From: Candidatus Binatus sp.
Lineage (GTDB): Bacteria > Desulfobacterota > Binatia > Binatales > Binataceae
Length of the DNA stretch: 64,000 nucleotides
Reading direction: 5' to 3'
Assembly (NCBI RefSeq): GCF_050013435.1
Contig: NZ_JBEKFG010000005.1
Span: forward strand, 12,609 to 76,608
Every line of letters starts with the position of its first letter. Within the stretch, counting starts at the first letter, position 1. The notes under the pieces were generated by a model that was given only the letters and a program-made list of their open reading frames with translations, made no database searches and was not told where the DNA came from. Of the stretch, positions 3,013-62,612 are shown piece after piece. A program made the position numbers and the translations under genes.

Positions 3013-3588
3013 CTATGGGAGATCCTCATCGACAAGTCGGCGATCCAAAGAGACGTGGATAATCTGGCTCACGACAGCGTCAGCCGGAATGTCCTTCACT
3101 GTGTCATTGATTCTGGTTCTAGGAATTACCGCACAGAAATCAAAGTCCCATCCCGTAACCGGCGCTGACGCATCACCAAATCGGCATTTTGCAGTCCACC
3201 CGTAACGCGATATTTCGGCATCGGGTTGAGGAAACCAACGCCTATCATTCGCCTTACCGGCCAGAATCAGCACTTGAACTAGGGCTGCCGATGGGTAGGC
3301 GAATCCCTTGACGATTTTGAATAGAGGCACCTTGCCGCCAGCGGGCGACTCAATGACGATCAACGGCTGGAACTCAGCGCTTCGCTGCCTTACTCCAAAC
3401 AGCACGGCCACAATCACAACGGCCAGAACTCCGAGCAAAAAGCCGAGCGCAGTATTTTGGAACGGGATGGCCTGAATTAGCCTGATCGCAATCACTGCGA
3501 CACCTGCGCGGATCCAATCGAACAGGCTCCACTTGAAGTACCATCTGTTAAACTCCGGCTCGTTAAGCCACGCACCGATTTTCGACAT
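3013..3588 (-). CDS. hypothetical membrane protein (cassette gene)
   Basis: 191 aa with two N-terminal TM helices and a soluble C-terminal domain. No motif I recognise. It is the only gene between the two repeat copies. Confidence 0.55.
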   Translation of the reverse strand: MSKIGAWLNEPEFNRWYFKWSLFDWIRAGVAVIAIRLIQAIPFQNTALGFLLGVLAVVIVAVLFGVRQRSAEFQPLIVIESPAGGKVPLFKIVKGFAYPSAALVQVLILAGKANDRRWFPQPDAEISRYGWTAKCRFGDASAPVTGWDFDFCAVIPRTRINDTVKDIPADAVVSQIIHVSLDRRLVDEDLP

Positions 3589-3669: not shown

Positions 3670-3756
3670 ATAATCCACTATGGGAAGGGGTTAGGGGTTA
3701 GGGGTTAGGGGTTAGGCTGGCTCAGAAAAGGTTCCAGAACGAATCACACTGGTGAA
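3670..3756 (-). repeat. direct-repeat copy 2: authentic carboxylesterase 3-prime end plus downstream sequence
   Basis: Same sequence as 2881..2952 but with two extra GGGGTTA units. Confidence 0.85.
3687..3716 (+). repeat. (GGGGTTA)x4 tandem heptamer, canonical G-quadruplex motif
   Basis: Sequence is ggggtta ggggtta ggggtta ggggtta gg, i.e. four G4 runs with TTA loops. The paralogous copy at about 2899..2914 has only about two units. Confidence 0.9.
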
Positions 3757-5236
3757 AGGCGTTAAAACTGGACTCGACCATCGGCGCTGGCGGGACCAAC
3801 GATTGGAACTCATCGGCTGACTTGCTGTACTTCGGCCACGTCGGCTCGTTAGCCGAGTTTGGGTTGCCAGTCTTCGCGAACTGCGTCCAGTAGCTGATCA
3901 TCGCGTCGGAGAGTGCCTGCTGGTCGGTCGTAAATGGGAAAACGTCCCCTGTTACAAGCATTAGGTATTGAATTTCCGCGCCGTGAAAGGCGCCCAGCGG
4001 AAAGCTTACCCCTGTTACGGTGCCCGGAGGCGCGTTCTCGTCATTGAACTCGTAGGCATAGGTCTTCACGAATTTCGACAATAGCAGATCCGCATTGCGC
4101 GCTGGACAGCTGAAGACTCCGTCGGTACCCGAGGCAGCCAATGCCAGATCGCCGCTAGGGTAACTGGCATAGGGATAGTATTCCAATACGTACGGTTCCA
4201 ATTCCGTTGTCCACAGCGCAGTGACTGCATCCGCGTATTCACCGAAGGTCAGGATAGGATTCCCCGCTAAGTCGTACTCACCAGCTACGAAGTACCTATA
4301 TTCATCATGGCTGGAGCATCCGACACTTATCGCGACGGAACTGCCCGACGGCGCGAAGCCATCGGTTGTCTCTGCAGTCTCTATTGGCACGATAGCAGGA
4401 AAGTAGTCCTGGAAGTCTGTATACGATCCGCTCTCGGCGATCGCGCCGCGGAACAGATGTTTCGCGGTCGGAGACGCAAGATTGCAATATACGCTCTGCC
4501 CTCCGGCGGACTCACCGAACATCGTCGCTTTCTTCGGATCGCCGCCAAAGGCCTTGATGTTCTCCTGAACCCACTTGAGCGCCAATTGCTGATCCATCAA
4601 CCCATAGTTGCCACGTTCATGGCCTTCGGAATCGAGCGCGGCCTGGGCAAGGAATCCCAGCACTCCCAGCCGGTAGTTGATCGTGACAACGATCACTCCT
4701 CCCTGGTTCACGAGTGGAGTAGGGTCGTAAAGGTCGCCGCCGCCGGCCGTAAGTCCGCCGCCATGAATCCAAACCATCACCGGCAGGCCGCTTGGCTTCT
4801 TGCTTGCGGCGGTCGTCTCGTCGCCGGCTTGTTCTACCGCGTTGCCAGGTTCGGAACCGGACGGCGTGTAAACATTCAGGTACAGACAATCCTCGCTGCC
4901 AGTCGGTCCGGGCTGCGTGCACTCATTGCCGAATTGAGTCGCCTCGAAAGTTCCTCCCGCAAACTCCCCGAAAGCCTCTGGCGGCAGCCAGCGCAGAGGC
5001 CCCACGGGAGGTGTGGCGTACGGGATGCCGAGAAATTCGTCGACGCCATTAACCGTTGTGCCGAGCACCACTCCGCTTTGAGCGATAGCAAACGGCTCTG
5101 GGTATGACGCCGTCTTGGCCGATGCGGTCACTACCGGGCCCAGCGTAAATGCGCAGAAAGCGGCCAATCCGAGGGCAAGCTTGGAAATAACGCCACAGCC
5201 CTCGAGCCGCTGGTTCGCCGTCTCGCTGTTCGTCAT
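3722..5236 (-). CDS. type-B carboxylesterase/lipase, secreted
   Basis: Motifs GIPYATPPVGPLRW, EDCLYLNVY and the nucleophile elbow FGESAGG. Signal peptide after MTNSETANQ. The tracked ORF 3722..6112 is an artefactual upstream extension running antisense to the GST gene. Confidence 0.9.
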   Translation of the reverse strand: MTNSETANQRLEGCGVISKLALGLAAFCAFTLGPVVTASAKTASYPEPFAIAQSGVVLGTTVNGVDEFLGIPYATPPVGPLRWLPPEAFGEFAGGTFEATQFGNECTQPGPTGSEDCLYLNVYTPSGSEPGNAVEQAGDETTAASKKPSGLPVMVWIHGGGLTAGGGDLYDPTPLVNQGGVIVVTINYRLGVLGFLAQAALDSEGHERGNYGLMDQQLALKWVQENIKAFGGDPKKATMFGESAGGQSVYCNLASPTAKHLFRGAIAESGSYTDFQDYFPAIVPIETAETTDGFAPSGSSVAISVGCSSHDEYRYFVAGEYDLAGNPILTFGEYADAVTALWTTELEPYVLEYYPYASYPSGDLALAASGTDGVFSCPARNADLLLSKFVKTYAYEFNDENAPPGTVTGVSFPLGAFHGAEIQYLMLVTGDVFPFTTDQQALSDAMISYWTQFAKTGNPNSANEPTWPKYSKSADEFQSLVPPAPMVESSFNAFHQCDSFWNLF

Positions 5237-11210: not shown

Positions 11211-13712
11211 ATGCCAGCCGCGGCCGCCGACCCGCTCGGCGGCCTGAGTCACGACGAGGCGGCGCGGCGCCTGAAGCGGTACGGGCCTAACCGCCTGGTG
11301 CGCGCATCGCGCGGCGCCGCAATCCTGGCGTTTCTCAGAACCGCCGCGGACCCGATGGCATTAATGCTGGCCGCGGCCGGCGCGGTTTACTACGCGCTGG
11401 GCGAGCGGACCGACGCGTACGTCCTGTTCGCAGCGATCGTTCCGGTGCTTGCCGTCGATGTAATCCTCGAGGCGCGATCGCGCACCGCTCTCAAGAAGCT
11501 TGCGGGCGTCGTCGCGCCGCGGGCGCGAGTGGTTCGCAGCGGTGTCCAGACCGAGGCTGCGACCGCGGACCTTGTCCCCGGCGATCTGCTGGCGCTGAAA
11601 GAGGGCGACATCGTTCACGCCGATGCGGTTGTGCGTTCGAGTTCCAATCTCGCGCTCGACGAATCGCAGCTCACCGGCGAAGCGGAACCCGTTTCGAAGC
11701 GGCCGTGCGAAACACCCGGAGCCATGCCGGATGCCGCGGAGGACAGCCGCGTGTATGCGGGCTCGCGCGTGCTCGAGGGCCAGGGGTTTGCCGAGGTAAC
11801 GGCGACCGGGGAGCGCACCCGCTATGGCGACCTGGCGCGCCTGGTCGCGGAGGTCGGCCCGCGTCCTACCCCGCTTGAGCGCAAGACCGGGCGCATGGTG
11901 CGCTGGATGGTCGGCGTGGCGATTACCGTTTCGGCGCTGCTGTTTGTCGTGCGCATGCTCGGCGGCGCGCCGGCGGGCAAGGCGTTTCTGTATGCGGTCA
12001 GCCTCGCGATGTCCGCCGTTGGCGAAGAGTTCCTGCTGGTGCTGACGATGTTCCTGAGTATCGGAGCGTATCGCCTTAGCCAGCACGGAGTCCTGGTGCG
12101 CCGCCTGGCCAGCGTCGAGACGCTCGGCTCAACCACCGTCATCTGCCTCGACAAGACCGGCACTCTGACGGCCGGCGAGTTCGTGCTCGAGGAGCATCTG
12201 CCGCTGGGGCCGGAGATGCCGGAGGACGCGTTGCTCGAGGCGGCCGCGCTCGCCTGCGAGCCTCAAGCCGCCGACACGATGGAGAGAAAGATTCTCGCCC
12301 ATTGCACGGAGCACGGGATCAACGTCGATGCGCTTCACTCGCGATGGCATCTGGAGCACGACTACGCGTTCGACCCGGTCGGCAAACACATGTCGCACGT
12401 CTGGAGCAGCGGCGACGGCGCCGGGGGCGCACAGCGAATCGTGGCGAAGGGCGCGCTGGAAGGGATAATCGAGCATTGCGATCTGTCGCAGGCGGATTTC
12501 GCTCGCGCCGAGAGCGCCAATGCCGAGATGGCGGGGCGCGGAATGCGCGTGCTTGCCGTGGCCGGCCGCGATGCGCGGCCGGGCGGATTCAACGGCGTGC
12601 GCGGGTCGGACGAGCGCGGGCTTCGTCTGTTCGGGCTGCTCGGGTTTCGCGATCCGCTGAGAGCCGCGGTTCCCGACGCGGTCGCGCAATGCCAGCGCGC
12701 CGGGGTGGAACTCAAGCTGATTACCGGCGACCACGCGCTCACCGCGCACGCAATCGCCGACGCCGCCGGAATCGCGCACAGCGACGACGGCATCGTCACC
12801 GGCGCGCAACTCGACAGCGTTGACCAGCCGGCCTTCGAAGGGCTGGTTCGCCGCTGCAGCATCTTCGCGCGCATCCGCCCCGAACAAAAATATGCGATCG
12901 TCGAGGCGCTGAGGCGCGCGGGCGAAGTCGTCGCGATGACCGGCGACGGGATAAACGACGCGCCGGCGCTGCGCCGGGCGGACATTGGCGTGGCGATGGG
13001 CCGGCGCGGAACGGAGGTCGCACGCGCGGCTGCGGACATCGTGCTGCTCGAGGACGATTTCTCCGCGATGGTCGCAACGATTCGCGAAGGCCGGATTTTG
13101 CTCGACAACATTCAGCGCGCCTTCCTTTACCTGGTCGGCTTCAAGGTGATGCTGGTATCGCTCACGCTGTTGGCGCCGGTCTTCGGCCTGCCGCTGCTGC
13201 TATTGCCGGTGAATTTGGTGTGGCTCGAGATGATCGTACACCCGGTCTCCGCGCTCGCTTTCGAGGGCGAGCCCGCCGTCGATGACGTGATGCGGCGGCC
13301 GCCGCGTCCTCCCTCAGCGCCGATCGTCGAGCGACCCGCCGCTTACCGTGCGGCTTTATCCGGGGCGCTGCTGACGGTGATGGCGCTTGCGCTCTTCGCG
13401 CTTCGACTCCGCGACGGCGAGAACTACGCCCGCAGCGTCGCGATGGTCGTCGCCGTGGTGGGGAGCCTGTTTCTGGTCTGGGCGGAGTACGCAGGGACCC
13501 GTCGATGGTGGCGGGTTCGCGCGCCGGAGCAGCGGCGATTCTGGCTTGTGATCTTTGCCGTAGCCGCCAGTCTGCCGGCATTCATGCTGACGCCGCCGCT
13601 GGCTAAGCTGCTGATGATCCGCCCGATTGCTCCCGCCGATTGGGGGATCGCAATATTGGCGGCGGCGATCGCCGTCGGTTGGCGCGCGTTCGGCACCCGC
13701 AGCGTCAGATAG
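11211..13712 (+). CDS. cation-transporting P-type ATPase (P2/P3-like)
   Basis: Phosphorylation motif CLDKTGTLT, hinge MTGDGINDAPAL and a TGE-type actuator motif (LTGEAEP). About 10 TM helices. ATG at 11211 is preceded by aaagggg; a TTG at 11193 is also possible. Confidence 0.9.
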   Translation: MPAAAADPLGGLSHDEAARRLKRYGPNRLVRASRGAAILAFLRTAADPMALMLAAAGAVYYALGERTDAYVLFAAIVPVLAVDVILEARSRTALKKLAGVVAPRARVVRSGVQTEAATADLVPGDLLALKEGDIVHADAVVRSSSNLALDESQLTGEAEPVSKRPCETPGAMPDAAEDSRVYAGSRVLEGQGFAEVTATGERTRYGDLARLVAEVGPRPTPLERKTGRMVRWMVGVAITVSALLFVVRMLGGAPAGKAFLYAVSLAMSAVGEEFLLVLTMFLSIGAYRLSQHGVLVRRLASVETLGSTTVICLDKTGTLTAGEFVLEEHLPLGPEMPEDALLEAAALACEPQAADTMERKILAHCTEHGINVDALHSRWHLEHDYAFDPVGKHMSHVWSSGDGAGGAQRIVAKGALEGIIEHCDLSQADFARAESANAEMAGRGMRVLAVAGRDARPGGFNGVRGSDERGLRLFGLLGFRDPLRAAVPDAVAQCQRAGVELKLITGDHALTAHAIADAAGIAHSDDGIVTGAQLDSVDQPAFEGLVRRCSIFARIRPEQKYAIVEALRRAGEVVAMTGDGINDAPALRRADIGVAMGRRGTEVARAAADIVLLEDDFSAMVATIREGRILLDNIQRAFLYLVGFKVMLVSLTLLAPVFGLPLLLLPVNLVWLEMIVHPVSALAFEGEPAVDDVMRRPPRPPSAPIVERPAAYRAALSGALLTVMALALFALRLRDGENYARSVAMVVAVVGSLFLVWAEYAGTRRWWRVRAPEQRRFWLVIFAVAASLPAFMLTPPLAKLLMIRPIAPADWGIAILAAAIAVGWRAFGTRSVR
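13643..13708 (+). repeat. 66-bp direct repeat, copy 1 (last 22 codons of the ATPase)
   Basis: 64/66 identical to 16505..16570. Confidence 0.9.
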
Positions 13713-13902
13713 GTTTTGTCGATCACGTCTGTGACCGGGCATTGTCGCCATGCGCTAACCGAGACATCGCCGCATCATCCTTTCTAGCCGGTCGCATTCG
13801 ATCCTTTGCATTCAGGCGGAGTACAATTGCCCAATGCCATGCTCACTTGGGCCGCAACTGGCTGGCGATGCGCAACTCTGCCGAACCTGAAGAGCTTCTC
13901 GA

Positions 13903-15216
13903 ATGACGCGACGACCGCCGCGCGCCACAGTGTCCGAAGCGGACGATAGGCCAACTATCGTTACTCGCGACTCGGACCCGGACAGGCGGCCCTCCGCGCG
14001 GAGCTTGCGCGGACTCGACTGGCTCAACTTCCTGCTCGCCGACGTGCAAAGCGGTGTGGGGCCGTTCCTCGCGATCTACCTTGCCGGCTATGGCTGGAAC
14101 GAGCAGCGCGTGGGCCTTGCACTCACGATTGGAGGAATCGCCGGTATCGCATCGCAAACACCGGCCGGCGCTTTGGTGGACCGGCTCAAGTCCAAAAGAG
14201 CGCTGATTGCGGCGGGAGTGGCCGCCTTGGCTATCGGCGCTCTCTTCATTGCGTTCTTTCCGTCGTTCTGGCCGGTGGTGACAGCGCAAGTGCTTATCGG
14301 CGCAATGTCCAGTTTCTTCATGCCTGCCATCGCCGCAATCTCTCTTGGGATTGTGGGACATAGACTCTTCAATCTCCGCCAAGGACGAAACCAGGCATTC
14401 AATTCGGCCGGCAACGTGGTCGCCGCCCTAATGATGGGGCTGATCGGTTATTTCATTTCGAACCGCGGCGTCTTTTTCTTTGTCGCGGTTCTCGCAGTCC
14501 CGACGATCCTGTCGCTGTTGCTCATCCGCCCCGACGAGATCGACTACGAACTGGCCAGGGGAGCCAGGGACGGCGAGGATGATCGAAATCCGGCAAGTGT
14601 CCTGGAACTGATCGAGGATCACCCGCTGATGATCTTCCTGTGCTGCGCGGTCATGTTTCATTTCGCCAACGCAGCGATGCTTCCGCTGCTCGGCGAGATG
14701 CTGGCGAAAGGCAAGGGTCGCACTTCGATGATGTTCATGTCCGCCTGTGTCGTGACAACGCAGTTCACGATCACACTGCTCGCGGCACGGGCAGGCCGGA
14801 GTGCGGGCTCATGGGGCAGAAAGCCCCTGCTGCTCGTAGGATTCGGAGTGCTGCCGATCCGCGGCGTCCTTTACACCCTCACCCACAACCTCTACCTGCT
14901 GGTCGGCATCCAGGTGCTCGACGGCATCGGCGCCGGCATTTTCGGCGTCGTTTCCGTATTGGTGATCGCCGACCTGACGCGTGGCACCGGGCGGTTTAAT
15001 CTTACGCTCGGCGCGATCGCAACGGCCGTGGGAATCGGCGCGGCTCTAAGTCAAACGATCGCCGGATCTATTGTTCACCACTTCAGTGACCGAGCCGGGT
15101 TTCTGTTCCTGGCCTCCGTGGCGGCGGCGGCCTTTGCGATCCTGTGGCTCTTCATGCCCGAAACCCTTGACTGGAAAGCCGGCGCTCACGCGCCGACGTC
15201 GGTGGCGAAGCGTTGA
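13903..15216 (+). CDS. MFS transporter
   Basis: 437 aa, about 12 hydrophobic helices with a central loop. Charged N-terminal extension. Confidence 0.8.
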   Translation: MTRRPPRATVSEADDRPTIVTRDSDPDRRPSARSLRGLDWLNFLLADVQSGVGPFLAIYLAGYGWNEQRVGLALTIGGIAGIASQTPAGALVDRLKSKRALIAAGVAALAIGALFIAFFPSFWPVVTAQVLIGAMSSFFMPAIAAISLGIVGHRLFNLRQGRNQAFNSAGNVVAALMMGLIGYFISNRGVFFFVAVLAVPTILSLLLIRPDEIDYELARGARDGEDDRNPASVLELIEDHPLMIFLCCAVMFHFANAAMLPLLGEMLAKGKGRTSMMFMSACVVTTQFTITLLAARAGRSAGSWGRKPLLLVGFGVLPIRGVLYTLTHNLYLLVGIQVLDGIGAGIFGVVSVLVIADLTRGTGRFNLTLGAIATAVGIGAALSQTIAGSIVHHFSDRAGFLFLASVAAAAFAILWLFMPETLDWKAGAHAPTSVAKR

Positions 15217-16481
15217 CGATTGCCAATGACACTATCTGGGCAATCGCCGCGCTGAGCACCCTTGGTGTGATCGTCCGCCCTTGGAACCTGCCCGAGGCGA
15301 CCTGGGCTGTGACCGGCGCGGTCATGCTGATCGTGTTCGGTCTGCTGCCATGGAGCGACGCGCTGAAAGCGGTCGCCAAGGGGACCGATGTGTACCTGTT
15401 TCTGAGCGGCATGATGCTGCTGGCGGAGTTGGCGCGCAAAGAGGGTTTGTTTGACTTTCTGGCCGGGCGAGCCGCTCGCTTGGCGGGCGGCTCCGCGGCG
15501 AAGCTGTTCGCGCTGGTTTATGGCGTCGGCACAGTAGTTACAGTTTTTATGTCGAACGACGCTACTGCGGTCGTCCTCACGCCAGCCGTGTTCGCCGCGA
15601 CCAAGGCCGCCAAGGTGAAGGACCCGCTGCCCTACCTGTTGATCTGCGCGTTTATAGCAAACGCGGCAAGCTTCGTCCTGCCGATCTCAAATCCAGCCAA
15701 CCTGATCATCTTCCGCGACCACATGCCGCCGCTGCTGCAATGGCTCGGGCGATTCGCGTTGCCATCGATCCTGTCGATCGCGGTTACCTATGCTGTCCTG
15801 CGGTTCACGCAGAGCGATTCGCTGCGGCAGGAGGTAATGGCCGCTGAGGTCGATGTACCTGGCCTGTCCAGCGGCGGCCGCATGACCGCTTGTGGCATCG
15901 TGGGCACGGGAATCGTGCTGCTGCTTGTCTCCGGCTTCGGCGTTGACCTTGGACTGCCGACATTTGTGGCCGCAGTCGCGACTGCCGCCGTAGTGCTTTT
16001 TCTAAAGCGCCAGTCACCGTGGAGTGTGATGAAGGACGCTTCCTGGGAAATCTTGCCGCTGGTGGCCGGTCTGTTCGTGCTGGTAGAGGCGCTTGATCGC
16101 AGCGGCGTGCTCAAAGCGCTCATTCATATTCTGCAGATAGGAGCAGATCGCTCTGCGATGGTGACGACTTGGATAGCGGGCGTGACTCTGGCCCTGATTT
16201 GCAACCTGGTCAACAACCTGCCGGCCGGTCTGCTGGCAGGCTCGGTTGTGTCTGCTGCGCATGTACCGCGGCAGGTCGCCAGCGCAGTGCTCATCGGGGT
16301 GGACCTCGGACCGAATTTGTCAGTTACCGGATCGCTGGCAACCATCCTGTGGCTGTCCGCGCTGCGGCGGGAAAATCAGAATGTGAGCGCCTGGAGTTTT
16401 CTGAAACTCGGTGCGTTGGTGATGCCGCCGGCTTTGATTCTCGCGATTGCGGGACTGCTGGTCACCGGCTCCGTTCGCTAG
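15213..16481 (+). CDS. ArsB/NhaD-superfamily permease
   Basis: 422 aa polytopic protein resembling arsenical-pump/citrate-transporter family permeases. TTG start overlaps the MFS stop codon. Confidence 0.7.
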   Translation: MTIANDTIWAIAALSTLGVIVRPWNLPEATWAVTGAVMLIVFGLLPWSDALKAVAKGTDVYLFLSGMMLLAELARKEGLFDFLAGRAARLAGGSAAKLFALVYGVGTVVTVFMSNDATAVVLTPAVFAATKAAKVKDPLPYLLICAFIANAASFVLPISNPANLIIFRDHMPPLLQWLGRFALPSILSIAVTYAVLRFTQSDSLRQEVMAAEVDVPGLSSGGRMTACGIVGTGIVLLLVSGFGVDLGLPTFVAAVATAAVVLFLKRQSPWSVMKDASWEILPLVAGLFVLVEALDRSGVLKALIHILQIGADRSAMVTTWIAGVTLALICNLVNNLPAGLLAGSVVSAAHVPRQVASAVLIGVDLGPNLSVTGSLATILWLSALRRENQNVSAWSFLKLGALVMPPALILAIAGLLVTGSVR

Positions 16482-16504
16482 TCCGTCCAGCGCCGAAACC
16501 TTTC

Positions 16505-16570
16505 GGGGATCGCAATATTGGCGGCGGCGATCGCCGTCGGTTGGCGCGCGTTCGGCACGCGCGGCGTCAG
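16505..16570 (+). repeat. 66-bp direct repeat, copy 2 (orphan ATPase 3-prime end)
   Basis: Same frame reads GIAILAAAIAVGWRAFGTRGVS with no stop. Overlaps the stop codon of the convergent acyl-CoA dehydrogenase. Confidence 0.9.
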
Positions 16571-24708: not shown

Positions 24709-25668
24709 ATGGCTGAAATCGGCAACAAGAACGAATCGTTCGAGGCCAAGGACTTCGGCTGGATGGTCGCGATGTCGGTCCTGTTCTTCGGGCTGGTCGT
24801 GGTTGGCTTCTGGTTTGAGTTCAGCACCGATTGGGGAGCTTATCAGCGTGAGTTTCCTCAACTGCTGAGCCACTACGGTAAAGTCGAAGACGCGCGCGAC
24901 TTCCGCGAGGGCATCAAACAGATCTGGATACCCAAGATTGGCGTCACCGATCGCTGCATCACGTGCCATCTCGGCTACGAATGGTCTTCGGTTCTTCCGG
25001 CCACGATCGCCGAGCCGCTGAAGCCGCACACGATGAACGATTGGCTCGCGAAGCATGAATTCGAGCGCTTCGGATGCACGCCATGCCACGGCGGCGACGG
25101 ATCGGCAACAACTCTCGCGGGATCTCATCAAGGGGGAAAGGGATGGGAAGATCCAATGCTCTCGCGCGCGCTGGCAGAGCGAAACGGGCTCACGATGAAC
25201 GAGATGATGCAGATGCGATGCAACTTTTGCCATCGCCGTGATGCCGCGACGCCGGGGATGGACGAGATCAATCTCGCCAAACGGCTCATCGTCAAGAAAA
25301 AGTGCCTGATCTGCCATACCGTCGAAGGGCGCGGCGGCAACACCGGACCCGAGCTGACCTACGAGGGCGACAAAAACCCCGAGTTGCTGAGCTTCGCGCA
25401 CGTCAACGGCGAACGCACGATGTTCAATTGGAACGTGCAGCATCTGACGCAGGCGAGCGTGGTTACGCCGAACACGCAGATGCCCGATTTCAACATGAAG
25501 CCCGAGGAATCGAGAGCGCTGACGCTGCTTCTGCTCAGCTGGCGGCGGCTGCCGTATCCCCCGGAATACATCCCGGATCCGGAATTGGCCGCAGCGGCGA
25601 TGCAACCGTCGCCGTCGCCTGCCTCAAGCGCGACTCCGGCTCCGGCCGCGACGCCTATCGCGCGTTGA
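24709..25668 (+). CDS. membrane-anchored tetraheme cytochrome c
   Basis: N-terminal TM helix. Four CXXCH motifs (CITCH, CTPCH, CNFCH, CLICH). Pro/Ala/Ser tail. Confidence 0.85.
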   Translation: MAEIGNKNESFEAKDFGWMVAMSVLFFGLVVVGFWFEFSTDWGAYQREFPQLLSHYGKVEDARDFREGIKQIWIPKIGVTDRCITCHLGYEWSSVLPATIAEPLKPHTMNDWLAKHEFERFGCTPCHGGDGSATTLAGSHQGGKGWEDPMLSRALAERNGLTMNEMMQMRCNFCHRRDAATPGMDEINLAKRLIVKKKCLICHTVEGRGGNTGPELTYEGDKNPELLSFAHVNGERTMFNWNVQHLTQASVVTPNTQMPDFNMKPEESRALTLLLLSWRRLPYPPEYIPDPELAAAAMQPSPSPASSATPAPAATPIAR

Positions 25669-25700
25669 GTATTCCGAGTTAAATATCGTTTGGTGAATCG

Positions 25701-26126
25701 ATGAAGCTGAAATTGTTGGCGTCAATCTTTGCGCTAGGCGCCGCGCTGTCCGTCGCGCAGCCCGCGCTGTCTGCGGGCAATGACGTGAGCGACGGGCACC
25801 GTTATTTCCTTCGCTACTGTGCGTCATGCCATGGTCTGGACGGTCTCGGAGACGGTCCGGTGGCGAAGAGCCTGTCCACGCCGCCGACAAGTCTGCGCAA
25901 GCTCGGCGACAAATATGGCGTGCCGCTGCCGGCGCATCGCATAGCCGAACTGATAGACGGTCGAGATACACCCAGGGCGCATGGGACTCACGAGATGCCG
26001 GTATGGGGAGAGCGCCTTTACGAGCTTGGCCAGGGTGAAAGGGGCGAATACGGGATCGGTGAAGTGATCGGCAAAATTATTGCCTACCTCAACATGATTC
26101 AGGATCGCCGAACTGCGATGCGATAA
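25701..26126 (+). CDS. monoheme cytochrome c
   Basis: Signal peptide, CASCH motif, HEMPVW distal Met region. Confidence 0.85.
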   Translation: MKLKLLASIFALGAALSVAQPALSAGNDVSDGHRYFLRYCASCHGLDGLGDGPVAKSLSTPPTSLRKLGDKYGVPLPAHRIAELIDGRDTPRAHGTHEMPVWGERLYELGQGERGEYGIGEVIGKIIAYLNMIQDRRTAMR

Positions 26127-26132
26127 CGCTGC
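26087..26132 (+). repeat. 46-bp direct repeat, copy 1 (last 12 codons plus stop of cytochrome c)
   Basis: 42/46 identical to 27321..27366. Confidence 0.85.
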
Positions 26133-26339
26133 AATGATGCGGGCGCGGCCCGCCAGCCCCGGTGCTGTCTTAATTCGGGACTGAGTGGTTGAATTTGAAT
26201 CCGCGAGTGTCTTAATTCGGCGCAATGCAACTAGGGTAAATTACCCTATTTAATTTTGCTTGAGCGGTGCAGGTTTCGAACCTTCTGATCTTGGCATCGC
26301 TTGCAATTTGACGCCGTCCAACTCTCCGACTGCCATCAT

Positions 26340-26750
26340 TTAGGGTGTCGGCAGGAACGCCGCCGGCGAGACGTGAAACCGCGCGGCAAGTTTTTTGATC
26401 TGATGCACATTGAGTTCGCGCTTTCCGCGCAGCACTTCCGATACTACGCCTTGGCTGCCGATCTCGGGCAGATCAGACTGCGTCAGGTCGTGCTCCTCCA
26501 TCAGATACTTGAGCACTTCGAGCCCGGAGGCGTCGGCTAAAGCATGATGCTCCACGTCGTATGCCTCGATCAGCACGCTCAGCGTTTCGATGAAGCGGTA
26601 ACGTGGGTCCCGCGGGTTGTCGCCAATCTCGTCAACCAGTTTGTTGAGCTGATTGACGGCCGTGTCGTATTCGCGGGCGCTGTGAATCGCGAGGAGCGGA
26701 GCGAATGCGGCCGGGTTCTTTAGGGTTCGAGTGGTAGTCCGACTTTTCAT
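26340..26750 (-). CDS. higA: HigA-type HTH (XRE) antitoxin
   Basis: 136 aa. C-terminal HTH LTQSDLPEIGSQGVVSEVLRGKRELNVHQIKKLAARFHVSPAAF. 4-nt overlap with higB. Confidence 0.85.
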   Translation of the reverse strand: MKSRTTTRTLKNPAAFAPLLAIHSAREYDTAVNQLNKLVDEIGDNPRDPRYRFIETLSVLIEAYDVEHHALADASGLEVLKYLMEEHDLTQSDLPEIGSQGVVSEVLRGKRELNVHQIKKLAARFHVSPAAFLPTP

Positions 26751-27046
26751 TTTTTCCAGCCACCTCTGTCGTATTCTGCATGGGTCAAGATGTAGCGGAT
26801 GAACAGCATTTGCCTGTTGAAGTGAATCGCTGCGATCAGCCTGTACTTGTTACCAGCAATATTGAAAACGTAGAAATCGCCCTTGCCGGTCGGCACGTAG
26901 TCCACCGATCCGAAGGTTCGCTTCAGCTCGGCCAGATTTGAATACGTTCCACTTTTTACCAGCTTGCACCATACTCGCAGCGGCGCGTCAGCATCGGGGT
27001 ATTGTTGCGCGAAGTCCCTGAGCGCCTTCTCCGAGACAACCCGCAT
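26747..27046 (-). CDS. higB: HigB-type mRNA interferase toxin
   Basis: 99 aa, toxin-first arrangement. Contains FNIAGNKYRLIAAIHFNRQMLFIRYILTHAEYD. Confidence 0.85.
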   Translation of the reverse strand: MRVVSEKALRDFAQQYPDADAPLRVWCKLVKSGTYSNLAELKRTFGSVDYVPTGKGDFYVFNIAGNKYRLIAAIHFNRQMLFIRYILTHAEYDRGGWKK

Positions 27047-27052
27047 GTCGAG

Positions 27053-27081
27053 AATATATCTCAGGATGAGATAGATGTCAA
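27053..27081 (-). promoter_or_regulatory. sigma-70 promoter candidate for higBA (near-leaderless)
   Basis: Minus strand reads TTGACA-17 nt-TATATT, and the -10 box ends 6 nt before the higB ATG. Confidence 0.6.
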
Positions 27082-27320
27082 CTCAAATTGCGATGAATTT
27101 TATTACTTCTTCGCCTTGCGCTTTTTGGCTCTCACCGCGGCGTGGCGGATATTCATGGACAGTGAGTTAGCAGGCGGTCGCGGGACCGGCAAACGGCGGT
27201 GGCGCAGAGGCGGCCGGGCGCGAGCGGAAATGCGGCCGCATCGCGAGATCGTTCCGACGAGTGTTGAGCGCAGCGGGAAAGAACTCGTGCGCCTGACCCG
27301 GGATTTTCGGGTACTCATTT

Positions 27321-27366
27321 CCTCAACATGATTCAGGATCGCCGAATGGCGGCGCGATAACGCTGC
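27321..27366 (+). repeat. 46-bp direct repeat, copy 2 (orphan cytochrome c 3-prime end)
   Basis: Retains the frame and stop (LNMIQDRRMAAR-stop versus LNMIQDRRTAMR-stop). Confidence 0.85.
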
Positions 27367-27378
27367 GCGCGGGCGGGC

Positions 27379-29049
27379 TCAGCGGGCGCCTGAGTTGCCA
27401 GGTTCGCAGGGCGTACGATGCAGCAGGGGTTCGAGCGCATCGTCGATTTCCGTGACAAGGCATTCGCGCGGCCGGGTGGTATCGATGCGCAGGTGGTTGC
27501 GCGCCGCAATCTCGCCAAGCGGCTCGAACTCGGCGCGCTGGCGCTGGTACACCTCCGGCGTAGCGTCTGAGACTTCACCGTGTATCGACGCGCGCCGCTC
27601 CAGCCGGCGTATCGCTTCGTCCTCACTGACGACGCATTCAACGAAAAGCACCGGCACGCCGTGGCGCGCCGCTATCGCCAGGGAGCGCTGCCTTTTGGCG
27701 GACGCCTTGAACGTCGCGTCGAGAATCGCTCCGCGGCCCTCGCTCAGGAGGCTCTCCGCTTCGTCGAGCATCGCGTCGTAGGTGATTGTCGTAAACCTGT
27801 CGGAATATATATCGGCTCCGTAATCCGCGCGGACGTGCTCGTGTGCGGAGACAGCTGCCAGGCGCTTGCGGACGCGGTCCGAGTTGATGATCTCGAAGCC
27901 CTTGCGATGCCGGAGCATGCGGGCGACGGTCGATTTGCCGGTGCCCGAAAGCCCGCACACTACGATCAGAGCCGGCGATGCGCCACGGGCATAGCGCCAC
28001 GCGAGCTCGAAGTAACTCCGCGCGAGTTGCCCAGCGCGCTCGTTATCCGCCGCGCCAACCTCGCGCTCGAGGCTTCTCAGGCTCTCGACCTTGCCGCGCA
28101 CGCATGCGCGATAGCACTTGTAGAACGGAACGAACAGCGCAAGCTCTTCGTCGCCGGTGATCTCCGCGTAGTCCTCGACCAACTCTTCGGCGAACCCAGG
28201 CGCGCCGAGCCGCTCGAGGTCCATCGCCAGGAATGCGATCTCCGAAGCGACGTCGCCGTAGCGCAACTGCTCGCTGAACTCGACGCAATCGATCACATCG
28301 ATTTCGTTTTCGTTGCCCACAAGGCAGATATGCTCGGCGCGCAAATCGCCGTGGCCTTCGCGCACCCGGCCCTCGCGCGCCCGCTCATTCAATGGCCGCC
28401 AATGAGCCGTGATAAAGGCGCGGCAGAAGGCGTCGATCGCGGTGAATTGGTCTTGGCGAAGCGTGCGACCGATAAAATCCCGGCTCTGCGCGATGTCCCC
28501 GATCACGCCGCGCCAGATTGCCGCGGCTGAACCGTAGGCCCATCCACGATTCGACGGCGCGCTCGCATGAAACTGCGCCATACGCGCCGCAATAGCGCGA
28601 ATCGTGCGGCTATCCACCTGGCCCGCGGCGAGCAGCCGATCGAGCATGCGGTCTTCGGGCAGCCGGCGCATCTTGACCGCGTACTCGACGGCTTCGGGAT
28701 GCTCGACGCGAACCTCGGGTCCGAGCACGAAGCAGTCCGCACGCTTAAGAATCGCGAACACGCCGAGGTACACACTTGGCGAAAGACGCGCGTTGAGGCG
28801 CACCTCCTCGATGCAATAGTGGAACCGGCGCGCGAGCCTGGAACAATCCAGGAATGCAAAATGAACCGGCTTCTTGACCTTGAAAACCGTTTCTCCGGCG
28901 ACAAAGACGTAAGATATGTGCGTCTGCTTGAGTTCGACGCGAGCGGGCGAGTCCGGGTAGAACTCCGGCCGCATCATTGCCTCGACCAGCGCCGCGACAC
29001 CGCCCGCGCGATCTCCGCCAGGCCTCGGCGTCCCGCATGGTTCCATCAT
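27379..29049 (-). CDS. bifunctional phosphotransferase (APH-like kinase fold) plus P-loop kinase (AAA_33-like) protein
   Basis: Start at MMEPCG. N-terminal kinase-like region (HGDLRAEHI catalytic loop). C-terminal Walker A CGLSGTGKST. Confidence 0.75.
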   Translation of the reverse strand: MMEPCGTPRPGGDRAGGVAALVEAMMRPEFYPDSPARVELKQTHISYVFVAGETVFKVKKPVHFAFLDCSRLARRFHYCIEEVRLNARLSPSVYLGVFAILKRADCFVLGPEVRVEHPEAVEYAVKMRRLPEDRMLDRLLAAGQVDSRTIRAIAARMAQFHASAPSNRGWAYGSAAAIWRGVIGDIAQSRDFIGRTLRQDQFTAIDAFCRAFITAHWRPLNERAREGRVREGHGDLRAEHICLVGNENEIDVIDCVEFSEQLRYGDVASEIAFLAMDLERLGAPGFAEELVEDYAEITGDEELALFVPFYKCYRACVRGKVESLRSLEREVGAADNERAGQLARSYFELAWRYARGASPALIVVCGLSGTGKSTVARMLRHRKGFEIINSDRVRKRLAAVSAHEHVRADYGADIYSDRFTTITYDAMLDEAESLLSEGRGAILDATFKASAKRQRSLAIAARHGVPVLFVECVVSEDEAIRRLERRASIHGEVSDATPEVYQRQRAEFEPLGEIAARNHLRIDTTRPRECLVTEIDDALEPLLHRTPCEPGNSGAR

Positions 29050-29090
29050 TTCACCCGGGTCCGCGCATCGCTCCCGCCTGCCCGCCGTGC

Positions 29091-29897
29091 TCAGACTCGC
29101 GCGGTCAGCGCCTCTAGCACGTCGCCCGTGGTTATCACGCCGGCGAGCTTGCCGTCTTCCAGCACTGGCAGCCCTCCGATCTTCCGGTCGCGCAGCAAGC
29201 GCGCAGCCTCTCGAATATCGGTCGATGGCGTGACAGTTATCAGCGTTTCGCTCATCGCCTTGCACGCCTCGGTTTGATCCAAAAGGCCGGTGTGCTGGCG
29301 GATGTCGCGGTCGGTCACAATTCCGACCGGGACGCCTTCATTGAGGATCGGCACGCATCGAAAGCCTCCCGCGTGCATCTTGGTTGCGATGGAGGCAAGC
29401 TTCTCGTGCGGAGTCGCGGTGATCGGATTTTTCGTCATCCAGGTGCCGACCAGGTCGCTTTGCGCGGGCGTGCAGCGCACGGTCACCACCGGGCACATGG
29501 ATTCGCGCAAGACGACCTCGGCGATGCTGCCAAGGAAAAAGCGCTTGAAGCCACGGCGCCCGTGCGTGGCCATTACGATTACGTCGGCGCTGGTTTTCTT
29601 TTCGGCGTTTAAGATGGCACCGGCCGGCTCGCCGGTATGGGTCAGAACTTCGTACTTGAGTCCGTCCAGTCGCTTGTGTGCGATCTCGAGCAGCTTGGCG
29701 CGGGCAGTCTCTTCCTGCCCCTTGTAGAGGTCGACATAGATCGGCATCCCCGTCGGCGCGAGGATCATCGGAACCACGTGCAAGACAAACACGGTGCCGT
29801 CGCTCTCGCGGGCGAAATCCGCGGCAGTATCGAGCGCCTGCATCGAGTTATCGTCGAAGTCCACCGGGCAAAGAATTCTGCGGAATGGGTATGCCAT
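29091..29897 (-). CDS. universal stress protein domain fused to a CBS pair
   Basis: Start at MAYPFRRILCPVDF. USP motif VMATHGRRGFKRFFLGSIAEVV, then two CBS repeats (GIVTDRDI, GVITTGDV). Confidence 0.85.
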   Translation of the reverse strand: MAYPFRRILCPVDFDDNSMQALDTAADFARESDGTVFVLHVVPMILAPTGMPIYVDLYKGQEETARAKLLEIAHKRLDGLKYEVLTHTGEPAGAILNAEKKTSADVIVMATHGRRGFKRFFLGSIAEVVLRESMCPVVTVRCTPAQSDLVGTWMTKNPITATPHEKLASIATKMHAGGFRCVPILNEGVPVGIVTDRDIRQHTGLLDQTEACKAMSETLITVTPSTDIREAARLLRDRKIGGLPVLEDGKLAGVITTGDVLEALTARV

Positions 29898-61141: not shown

Positions 61142-61568
61142 GTCATAGCTTCGCGGGGGCTATGCCGCTATGCCGACGTCGGCCAGATATCGCCGAGCTG
61201 CCGATTTCAGGGAAGGTCTCGGACTTTGGCAGATGATGCGTTCCAAGCAGGTATTGCTTGTTCCTCGTCGCCGGCGATTTGCGTCGTAAGCCGTATCGCT
61301 TCCCCAGCGCCTGCCATACGCGATCACACGACTTCCGCATCGGCACGAGCGATGGGGCCGGGAAGCTGCACGATCCCTAGACGCTCGAATTCATCCCGCT
61401 GCTCAGTGGTAAGCGTGGCGACTCCGCACGAGCGGAAATCCAGATTCTGAAACACCATAGTCAGTGAGACAAGGAGCTTGCAACCGCCAACGGCCGGTAC
61501 TGGTCCGGTCTGGCCGGTTCGACCCGATGTCAACGCCCGACCGCGACCAGATGTACCACCGTCGCGTG

Positions 61569-61624
61569 CCTGTGTGTGGCGAATTGCTGATTCTTGGGGA
61601 AATCAGCAATTCGCCACACACAGG
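61569..61624. repeat. 56-nt palindromic element (24-bp perfect stem, 8-nt loop)
   Basis: cctgtgtgtggcgaattgctgatt-cttgggga-aatcagcaattcgccacacacagg. Confidence 0.95.
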
Positions 61625-62491: not shown

Positions 62492-62557
62492 CGCGAGGGC
62501 AGATCGTGATGACGATGCGAGAACGAATCTTAATTTATGATTGAACCGCGCCTCCAG

Positions 62558-62612
62558 CCTGTGTGTGGCGAATTACTGATTTCCCCAGAATCAACAATTC
62601 GCCACACACAGG
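62558..62612. repeat. 55-nt palindromic element, inverted copy of 61569..61624
   Basis: cctgtgtgtggcgaattactgatt-tccccag-aatcaacaattcgccacacacagg. The loop is the reverse complement of the first copy's loop minus 1 nt. Two stem mismatches. Confidence 0.95.

Follow-up and report, generated by a model that had tools for sequence, protein, structure and literature searches.

A higBA cassette between direct repeats of a cytochrome c gene end in Candidatus Binatus

How do small cassettes without mobility genes enter bacterial chromosomes? The process is poorly understood, and one class of such insertions has been without a mechanism since 2000. The question is raised by a locus of an uncultured Candidatus Binatus of peat, within a stretch of 64,000 nucleotides of assembly GCF_050013435.1 (contig NZ_JBEKFG010000005.1, positions 12,609 to 76,608; hereafter the window), in which a higBA toxin-antitoxin operon lies between two copies of the end of a cytochrome c gene. 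The assembly of the host genome (G000) comprises 3.57 Mb in 150 contigs, and the window falls within contig C5. Positions are given in window coordinates, G-numbers denote Candidatus Binatus genomes, L-numbers denote contigs including metagenome contigs, and the relatives come from peat and soil metagenomes. We consider the structure to be a horizontally acquired composite cassette of 1.19 kb that has no recombinase of its own and whose 46-bp repeat is a target duplication, i.e. an insertion with long target duplication; to this reading we assign a probability of about 0.6.

The duplicated gene end and its empty sites

Re-alignment of positions 26087-26132 with 27321-27366 gave a direct repeat with 42 of 46 bases identical, in agreement with the first-pass annotation of this DNA, which had described a repeated cytochrome c gene end with frame and stop kept. 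Each 46-nt copy comprises 12 codons, a TAA stop and 6 nt downstream, and both are in frame; an alignment tool lengthens the pair to 63 nt at 81% identity. The leftmost 26 nt of the two copies are identical and are followed by diverged sequence, with all four differences inside 8 nt (P = 0.009). The chance expectation for such a match is estimated at ~1e-10 per 64-kb window, and the repeat sequence occurs in only these two copies in the 3.57-Mb assembly, so that it is not a multi-copy genomic repeat. The repeat-flanked structure is real, no assembly artefact, and fixed in the sampled population, since 20 independent metagenome contigs from JGI, ENA and Logan assemblies are 99.7-100% identical to the window over 25701-27700. 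Half of them (10 of the 20) cover the full 2 kb, and all ten are 100% identical to the window. Peat metagenomes containing this population include JGI 3300018047 and 3300038425 and ENA ERZ27250077.

The 1,188-bp block between the copies is an insertion into the tail-to-tail junction of the cytochrome c gene and a convergent kinase gene. The insert is missing from G002 and G013, where its two flanks map to a single uninterrupted stretch, and in G002 their subject coordinates overlap by exactly 46 bp. A search for the uninterrupted junction in relatives, which the first-pass annotation had proposed as a check, recovered it also in G001, G023, G047, L122, L125 and L126, with a spacer of ~18 nt. 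All of these relatives have a single cytochrome c tail, as do those in which the junction carries a channel-like gene (G007, G051), a 0.6-kb insert (G050, L124) or a short insert (G017), and among the junctions examined no second tail was found in relatives without an insert. Extra tail copies are present in G019 and L123, which have other cargo, and each of them brackets its own insert. The kinase side is 89-91% identical to G002, G013 and G007, like the remaining region. The insertion proposed from the sequence is therefore supported, and a decayed tandem paralog conserved in relatives lacking higBA, which had been named as the observation that would speak against it, was not seen. The cytochrome c protein has likely kept its length and likely had two C-terminal residues changed by the insertion.

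No recombinase gene was found in or near the insert, which has no room for one; the recombinase profile hits of the genome (three PF00589 and two PF00239) are all on other contigs. Likewise, the insert contains no open frame for a transposase and no room for one, DDE transposase families not having been searched genome-wide. No terminal inverted repeats were found at the insert ends, nor was a common end motif among the ~25 two-copy repeat-flanked inserts of this genome.

The repeat copies had been treated alike in the first-pass annotation. The series of tail alleles in the genus indicates that they are not equivalent: the orphan copy beside the kinase gene looks like the native tail, and the copy in use looks like a different allele that arrived with the insert. 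The orphan copy encodes ..RRMAAR followed by the stop, as in G002, and has the same sequence as L122 throughout the differing block and the stop. The spacer and the kinase end into which it runs match those of the closest relatives. The copy in use encodes ..RRTAMR and the stop (T-A-M), with an ACT codon. T-A-M is found in most of the genus, M-A-V in G013 and G007, and M-A-A in G002, several metagenome relatives and the orphan copy; together these alleles form a stepwise series, as would be expected for a tail that was in use until recently. In addition, the last 103 nt of the cytochrome c gene have 8 substitutions unique to this genome compared with 1.8 expected (P = 6e-4), and 4 of the 8 are located left of the repeat, at 26030-26086 (P = 0.02). 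We read this as a foreign tract that would start inside the cytochrome c gene and continue into the insert. The donor need not be distant, because G051, a clade member at 93% identity, still carries the T-A-M tail; this genome has a different insert at the junction, with the same channel-like gene as G007.

Other inserts at the junction and in the genome

Across relatives, the cytochrome c/kinase junction has received at least five distinct cargoes. For each insert, the overlap of the left and right joints was determined in native-junction coordinates, where positive values (in bp) stand for duplication and negative values for loss. The overlap is +46 for higBA in G000. In G019 it is +99 for an antiporter-like gene together with Usp and +58 for a second insert, an MFS gene, and it is again +58 in L123 (G044-like), which has the same antiporter cargo as G019, possibly from the same event and trimmed later. 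A 0.6-kb insert in G050 and L124 gives +2 and the short insert of G017 gives -2, followed by the channel-like gene of G007 and G051 (-13), the antiporter cargo plus one further gene in L129 (-28) and a 0.6-kb insert in G012 (-71). A spread from loss to duplication is unlike the work of a site-specific enzyme and would be expected if the joints were largely independent and truncated genes were selected against. Most harmless products need overlapping joints, because the spacer measures only 18 nt.

Two of these inserts have peculiarities of their own. L120 (G019:C185) contains three junction copies (1360-1456, 3346-3442 and 4745-4800), around the antiporter-like gene with Usp and then around the MFS insert, which amounts to a double hit. 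In L004 (G007:C29, 1991-3076) and L149 (G051), a 361-aa membrane protein is encoded in the junction and the last few kinase codons are replaced; from the appearance of its sequence, this protein resembles a pentameric ligand-gated ion channel.

Comparison of the host genome with itself revealed at least 10 further inserts of 0.4-3 kb between repeats of 37-176 bp, one repeat copy being formed by a neighbouring gene's 3' end. The higBA locus had been counted as the third case of this architecture, which understates its frequency, as one case at a P-type ATPase gene is located in the window and at least ten more are found in the genome. The cargo of the other inserts includes an amidohydrolase, a porin, an aminoglycoside-type phosphotransferase, a short-chain dehydrogenase, HigA-like and ParE-like proteins, a beta-propeller repeat protein with tandem SSPAIGADGTIY repeats (named by eye), and MFS and ArsB/CitMHS-like transporters, the last two being the only cargo of these inserts that was run through Pfam. 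Direct repeats of 54 bp (2899-2952 and 3703-3756), which start with runs of GGTTAGG/GGGGTTA heptamers, flank an open reading frame of 191 aa without a Pfam match and with a lower GC content of 0.54.

In the ATPase case, 69-bp repeats (13640-13708 and 16502-16570) enclose an insert at 13709-16501. An exact empty site is present in G002 and G013, and the insert itself is present in G007, with a 160-bp deletion at the left joint. It places an MFS gene and an ArsB/CitMHS-like transporter gene at the end of the P-type ATPase gene, and the ATPase loses ~10 native codons that formerly overlapped the convergent gene. Another insert, on contig C8, is shared by G000 and G002, and both G013 and G007 lack it. 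The distributions of the ATPase and C8 inserts are incongruent, and the inserts have therefore spread by flanking homology or been lost precisely through their repeats.

Both tail copies in the window share a T, which creates an ATG codon and is found in no relative; a same-species empty allele with this unique codon was not found in the metagenome collection. At the ATPase locus (G000, G007) and the C8 locus (G002), the two repeat copies within a genome also share genome-specific variants. Gene conversion between repeat copies therefore happens in Candidatus Binatus, and it can explain the shared T of the ATG codon.

Possible routes of insertion

The route that we favour for the higBA cassette is a combination of one-sided homologous and illegitimate recombination. 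Incoming DNA from another Candidatus Binatus lineage would have carried the cassette already downstream of the donor's cytochrome c gene. On the left side, homologous recombination would have occurred inside the cytochrome c gene, at about 26030-26090, and the right end would have been fixed by an illegitimate joint 46 nt upstream of the end of homology, because of which the recipient's tail would survive as the orphan copy. Selection would retain only products with both convergent genes whole, and we infer that overlapping joints, i.e. duplications, are observed for this reason. Such overlapping joints could arise physically from two sister copies, through a staggered break or by way of a circular intermediate. 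Later gene conversion between the copies would have produced the shared ATG codon, and the addictive HigBA would make it costly to lose the insert through recombination of the repeats, because higA would be lost together with higB; this would fit the presence of the insert in all sampled contigs. Genes for ComEC and DprA, which occur in most bacteria, are present in the genome and lend weak support to an uptake route.

Several points weigh against this route. The shared T of the ATG codon requires gene conversion or a donor that also had the T. The postulated donor arrangement, a cytochrome c tail with the first block of the insert (block A, see below) directly behind it, turned up neither among 60 relatives nor in the metagenome scan. 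No Ku gene was found in the genome, which speaks only against a single class of end-joining. The two repeat copies at the ATPase and C8 loci both look native, so that a foreign tail is not general and duplication in situ is possible. Moreover, overlapping joints need two target copies, as in a replicated region, or a staggered break, both of which are hypothetical here. Finally, the whole structure could have come ready-made from a relative by ordinary double crossover, and the genome would therefore say nothing on the first origin of the duplication.

Among the alternatives, a decayed site-specific integrative element at the 3' end of the cytochrome c gene holds up best, and we still regard it as improbable. 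The repeats would then be attL and attR, the integrase would have been lost, and higBA would be the survivor, as in a cis-mobilisable element (CIME). A 46-bp repeat that rebuilds a gene 3' end is a typical product of such elements, the identical 26-nt left part followed by divergence is a possible mark of a crossover core, toxin-antitoxin pairs are over-represented in small inserts with flanking repeats, and a tRNA-like fragment is located beside higA in the window. A search for the same cassette between different flanking repeats, suggested in the first-pass annotation, was also successful: in G004, higBA lies alone between 51-bp repeats (98% identical) that correspond to the 3' half of a tRNA-Arg(TCG) gene, a classic integrase target. 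Integrative elements that target tRNA genes and CIMEs have, as here, direct repeats rebuilding the 3' end of the target gene. They differ from the higBA locus of the window, which has no integrase, no conserved core, a protein-coding target and variable joints at one junction. The three tyrosine and two serine recombinase hits of the genome all lie elsewhere, and comparison by eye of the cytochrome c tail with the tRNA-Arg 3' half of G004 revealed no convincing common core. Instead of one fixed crossover position, the junction has joints ranging from -71 to +99 bp of overlap, and its other cargoes entered at different coordinates and with different repeat lengths. Furthermore, at least ten other inserts in the genome have unrelated repeats and ordinary cargo, and the lineage-unique substitutions of the cytochrome c gene reach left of the repeat.

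Marginally less probable is a Campbell-type single crossover, in which a circle with the cassette and the 46-bp tail of a relative would have integrated through RecA-dependent recombination in the 26 identical nt. This would explain without a special enzyme why the left copy is a hybrid, native on the left and foreign on the right, and why the right copy is a hybrid as well. Repeat-flanked inserts can in principle loop out, for instance by excision from the donor via its repeats, and the incongruent presence of the ATPase and C8 inserts among G000, G002, G007 and G013 is consistent with such mobility. On the other hand, 26-46 bp of homology is near the lower limit for RecA-dependent recombination, as judged by the minimal homology in E. 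coli, the excess of unique substitutions at 26030-26086 would be left unexplained, and so would the origin of the first duplication. Nor was a circular junction observed, sequencing reads not having been examined.

Somewhat less probable again is that the complete structure was copied from another Candidatus Binatus lineage by a double crossover through the cytochrome c and kinase genes, which would account for its spread and not for its origin. The ATPase and C8 inserts are common to non-sister species combinations, and the unique substitutions of the cytochrome c gene begin ~100 nt before its end, as at the border of a tract. Against this, no other sampled species has a higBA insert at this junction, and the kinase side has no evident change of affinity, its identity to G002, G013 and G007 being that of the surroundings. 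Highly improbable, finally, is that the orphan copy descends from a decayed tandem paralog of cytochrome c or that the repeat is an assembly artefact; the empty sites, together with the independent assemblies, refute this. Only the second in-frame tail speaks for it, while relatives without a repeat-flanked insert keep a single tail abutting the kinase gene, the extra tails of G019 and L123 bracket their own inserts, nothing cytochrome c-like lies upstream of 27321 and the same sequence recurs in the 20 JGI, ENA and Logan contigs.

Contents of the insert and its place among known insertions

The cargo is an intact type II HigBA toxin-antitoxin operon, as judged from domains and gene order, with a strong predicted promoter and an operator-like palindrome (Table 1). 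HigBA, an RNase pair that depends on the ribosome, does not cut DNA. The toxin gene comes first and overlaps higA by 4 nt, and its ATG follows the -10 hexamer after 6 nt. An inverted repeat (27054-27063 and 27067-27076) spans the promoter spacer and the -10 hexamer, and this stretch (27054-27076) is likely the HigA operator. HigB-HigA of Escherichia coli K-12 (PDB 5IFG; related 5YCL) likewise begins with the toxin gene, has a 4-nt overlap and comprises a RelE-like toxin of ~100 aa (PF09907), an antitoxin of ~137 aa with a C-terminal helix-turn-helix and a palindrome within the promoter; it differs in that the sequence similarity is distant (E ~1e-13 to 1e-16) and that the pair in the window is known from sequence. 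The higBA core (26326-27148) is 96% identical in G050, 90% in G004 and 86% in G011, each time in another context. In G050, higBA adjoins a second toxin-antitoxin-like pair that has 46-bp flanking repeats of its own. These direct repeats, located at 2426-2471 and 3245-3290 of L022 (G050:C35) around the second HigB/HigA-like pair, are 93% identical and seem to split a small minus-strand gene. In L101, a contig of ENA ERZ27250065, two substitutions (26552 and 26555) create a stop at HigA residue 67 near the contig end, which may be an assembly error rather than a true antitoxin-null variant.

Table 1. Features of the higBA insert and its flanks in window coordinates.
Feature	Positions	Strand	Basis or remark
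Direct repeat copy 1	26087-26132	+	Cytochrome c tail in use (..LNMIQDRRTAMR, stop, +6 nt); distal part is the T-A-M allele
Direct repeat copy 2	27321-27366	+	Orphan tail (..LNMIQDRRMAAR, stop, +6 nt); continues directly into native spacer and kinase stop
Inserted DNA, 1,188 bp	26133-27320		Absent from G002 and G013; mean GC ~0.55 compared with 0.62 for the genome
Block A	26161-26220	-	Genus-wide element of ~60 nt; three TGTCTKAATT repeats ~20-22 nt apart; sharp borders; contains gtcttaattcgg
Hairpin, 7-bp stem, then T-run	26232-26258	+	Sequence; stem-loop part 26232-26248
tRNA 3'-half-like fragment	26257-26300	-	T-arm GAAGG-TTCGAAA-CCTGC, then ACCGCTC
higA, antitoxin, 136 aa, C-terminal helix-turn-helix	26340-26750	-	PF01381 (HTH_3), residues 80-130; HigA chains 5ycl_A / 5ifg_B, E ~2e-16
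higB, toxin, 99 aa, RelE-like	26747-27046	-	PF09907, E = 3.8e-28, 98 bits with a 27-bit cut-off; HigB chains 5ifg_A / 5ycl_B, E ~1.5e-13
higBA promoter (predicted)	27053-27081	-	TTGACA, 17 nt, TATATT; 11 of 12 consensus matches
Block B and stub	27103-27199	-	Promoter-like leader and start codon of small secreted-protein family, cut to 17 codons (MNIRHAAVRAKKRKAKK, stop)
Monohaem cytochrome c gene, 141 aa	25701-26126	+	PF13442, PF00034; last gene of Rieske/cytochrome b cluster; gene body native, excess of lineage-unique substitutions in the last ~75-100 nt
AAA_33/APH-type kinase gene, convergent	27379-29265	-	Pfam; intact after insertion

The DNA between the repeat copies had been described as only higBA, its promoter and AT-richer DNA. 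The operon was confirmed as intact, and the remainder proved more varied: the insert is composite, because besides higBA and a tRNA-like fragment it holds the two conserved ends of a small-protein gene unit that occurs in multiple copies. One end is block A, which has dozens of matches in relatives at 77-93% identity, with several copies per genome, usually just downstream of genes for small secreted proteins. The twice-repeated motif of the first-pass annotation, gtcttaattcgg, is indeed present at 26166-26177 and 26208-26219 and belongs to this element. Further copies were seen at G000:C89:10185-10244 and in L033-L052, and as the repeats are spaced by roughly two helical turns, block A looks like a protein-binding array. 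The other end, block B with its 17-codon stub, had escaped the first-pass annotation. Block B proper (27137-27199) recurs in many relatives upstream of other members of the family, whose start is M[NK]LRHAAALALVGWYLM. Its leader comprises TTGTCG, 17 nt, TAACTC and an ATG 7 nt later, a spacing that suggests leaderless transcripts. In the list of open reading frames, the stub is part of a 71-aa frame (27103-27318, minus strand), of which only the last 17 codons match the conserved gene start; the remainder was treated as non-coding.

The family consists of proteins of ~100 aa (M[NK]LRHAAALALVGWYLM ... C..DDPRLK), encoded at G000:C89:9842-10138 and by ~9 paralogs on C85, C16, C7, C67, C11, C81, C23, C45 and C3; several copies are found in variable regions, and one unit is located between a trmD-like gene and rplS. 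In the intact unit at G000:C89:9842-10250, the family gene is followed by block A. Read from block B, the insert has the 17 codons, higBA, the weak tRNA-like fragment, the hairpin and block A, and from this order, higBA appears to have taken the place of the body of one such unit, either before the arrival of the piece at the junction or during it.

The 7-bp palindrome noticed at first pass was confirmed and has a T-run behind it; this hairpin is terminator-like and may now end transcripts leaving the cytochrome c operon. The tRNA T-arm-like stretch also exists, yet it matches no tRNA of the genome well, the best local alignment score with the 43 tRNAs being 16 over 25-55 aligned positions. 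ARAGORN found no tRNA within the insert. A partial copy of tRNA-Arg lies on the corresponding side of higA in G004, and the fragment in the window may, on weak grounds, be an old attachment-site remnant. An Rfam scan of 25600-27500 at E <= 1 gave no match, and blocks A and B are thus not known RNA families. The AT-richer stretch of ~200 bp was borne out by a GC content of 0.50-0.53 over 26100-26400; a second dip to the same level spans 26700-27200, and the right-hand 200 bp of the insert are GC-rich (0.64-0.66). The true start of the kinase gene is probably downstream of its first GTG, because metagenome gene calls are 531-532 aa long.

An integron gene cassette, which would have an attC site of imperfect inverted repeats with RYYYAAC / GTTRRRY cores and depend on an IntI integrase, was considered and rejected: block A is made of direct and not inverted repeats, there are no inverted ends, and none of the three PF00589 hits is nearby. 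Repeats of 55-70 nt on C14, C18 and C10, considered as attC sites, turned out to be double hairpins resembling repetitive extragenic palindromes (REP) or gene-start repeats and are unrelated to the insert. The REP-like family (~55 nt, two GC-rich hairpins, GGCAGGGCTGAGCCCTGC ... GGCCGCGCTCCGTTGTCGCGCGCGG) recurs every 1-4 kb at G000:C14:25029-36266 and C18:3324-6106. Another hairpin, with a near-perfect 25-bp stem (GCCTGTGTGTGGCGAATTGCTGATT ... AATCAGCAATTCGCCACACACAGG), is found in the window at 61568-61624 and 62557-62612 and at G000:C5:81929-81983, in copies ~1 kb and 7 kb apart.

Long target duplications are also made by insertion sequences of a type which we take to be IS1634, presumably the family of a Mycoplasma transposon; these duplications likewise measure tens to hundreds of bp and vary in length. 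Such elements differ in carrying a transposase and terminal inverted repeats, neither of which is present in the insert of the window, and the cargo here is unrelated from case to case. The Mycoplasma transposon with its long and variable target duplications is cited in the survey of Furuta, Abe and Kobayashi (2010, PMC2853133).

Restriction-modification complexes are the cargo for which insertion with long target duplication was described (Nobusato et al., 2000, Gene 259:99; Furuta, Abe and Kobayashi, 2010, PMC2853133). The survey (PMC2853133) required a direct repeat of >30 bp, an insert of <20 kb without mobility genes and an empty site in a relative; it contains two cases from Haemophilus influenzae in which a 46-bp repeat overlaps a gene 3' end, and its authors link the process to double-strand breakage of DNA, a trait that restriction-modification systems of every type share. 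The locus in the window has a 46-bp repeat, a single copy of it at the empty site of G002 and G013, an insert of 1,188 bp and no integrase or transposase genes. The repeat is not multi-copy, and HigBA stands in place of restriction-modification cargo, which defined the original survey and is not the insertion signature. The two kinds of locus thus have in common a repeat of >30 bp over the 3' end of a neighbouring gene, a small insert without a mobility gene and addictive cargo. They differ in that HigBA does not cut DNA, that the junction and the genome also took up transporters, stress proteins and enzymes, and that one repeat copy at the window locus is apparently a foreign allele. The double-strand-breakage idea does not fit here, because the cargo consists of HigBA, transporters and enzymes, and the insertion process looks cargo-independent.

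The favoured route also resembles homology-facilitated illegitimate recombination, which was reportedly found in natural transformation by de Vries and Wackernagel in 2002 (Acinetobacter) and by Prudhomme and colleagues in 2002 (Streptococcus pneumoniae). One end is anchored by homology and the other is non-homologous, no element-encoded enzyme is needed, and ComEC and DprA are present here too. The products in those experiments are said usually to delete recipient DNA and not to duplicate it, in contrast to the duplication in the window.

Taken together, the locus is a clear new example of a known, unexplained insertion class. Its value lies in the non-nuclease cargo, the exact empty sites, the native and imported tail copies and the series of independent insertions at one junction. 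The empty sites, the tail alleles and the insertion series argue for cargo-independence and point to recombination of incoming homologous DNA with selection for intact gene ends. Tentatively, and with the odds against it in our estimate, long target duplications may in general be the selected subset of a cargo-independent insertion process and not the footprint of a dedicated enzyme. In Candidatus Binatus, such a process would give incoming DNA two joints around a tail-to-tail junction, set largely independently of each other and in one case often by homology, and survivors would keep both gene ends whole, so that overlapping joints with duplications of 40-180 bp would be enriched. If this is true, the overlap series from -71 to +99 bp, the foreign tail in use and the non-cutting cargo would explain a phenomenon that has been attributed to restriction enzymes. 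The homogenisation of repeats by gene conversion and the incongruent distribution of inserts also matter for how gene gain and loss are read from metagenome-assembled genomes.

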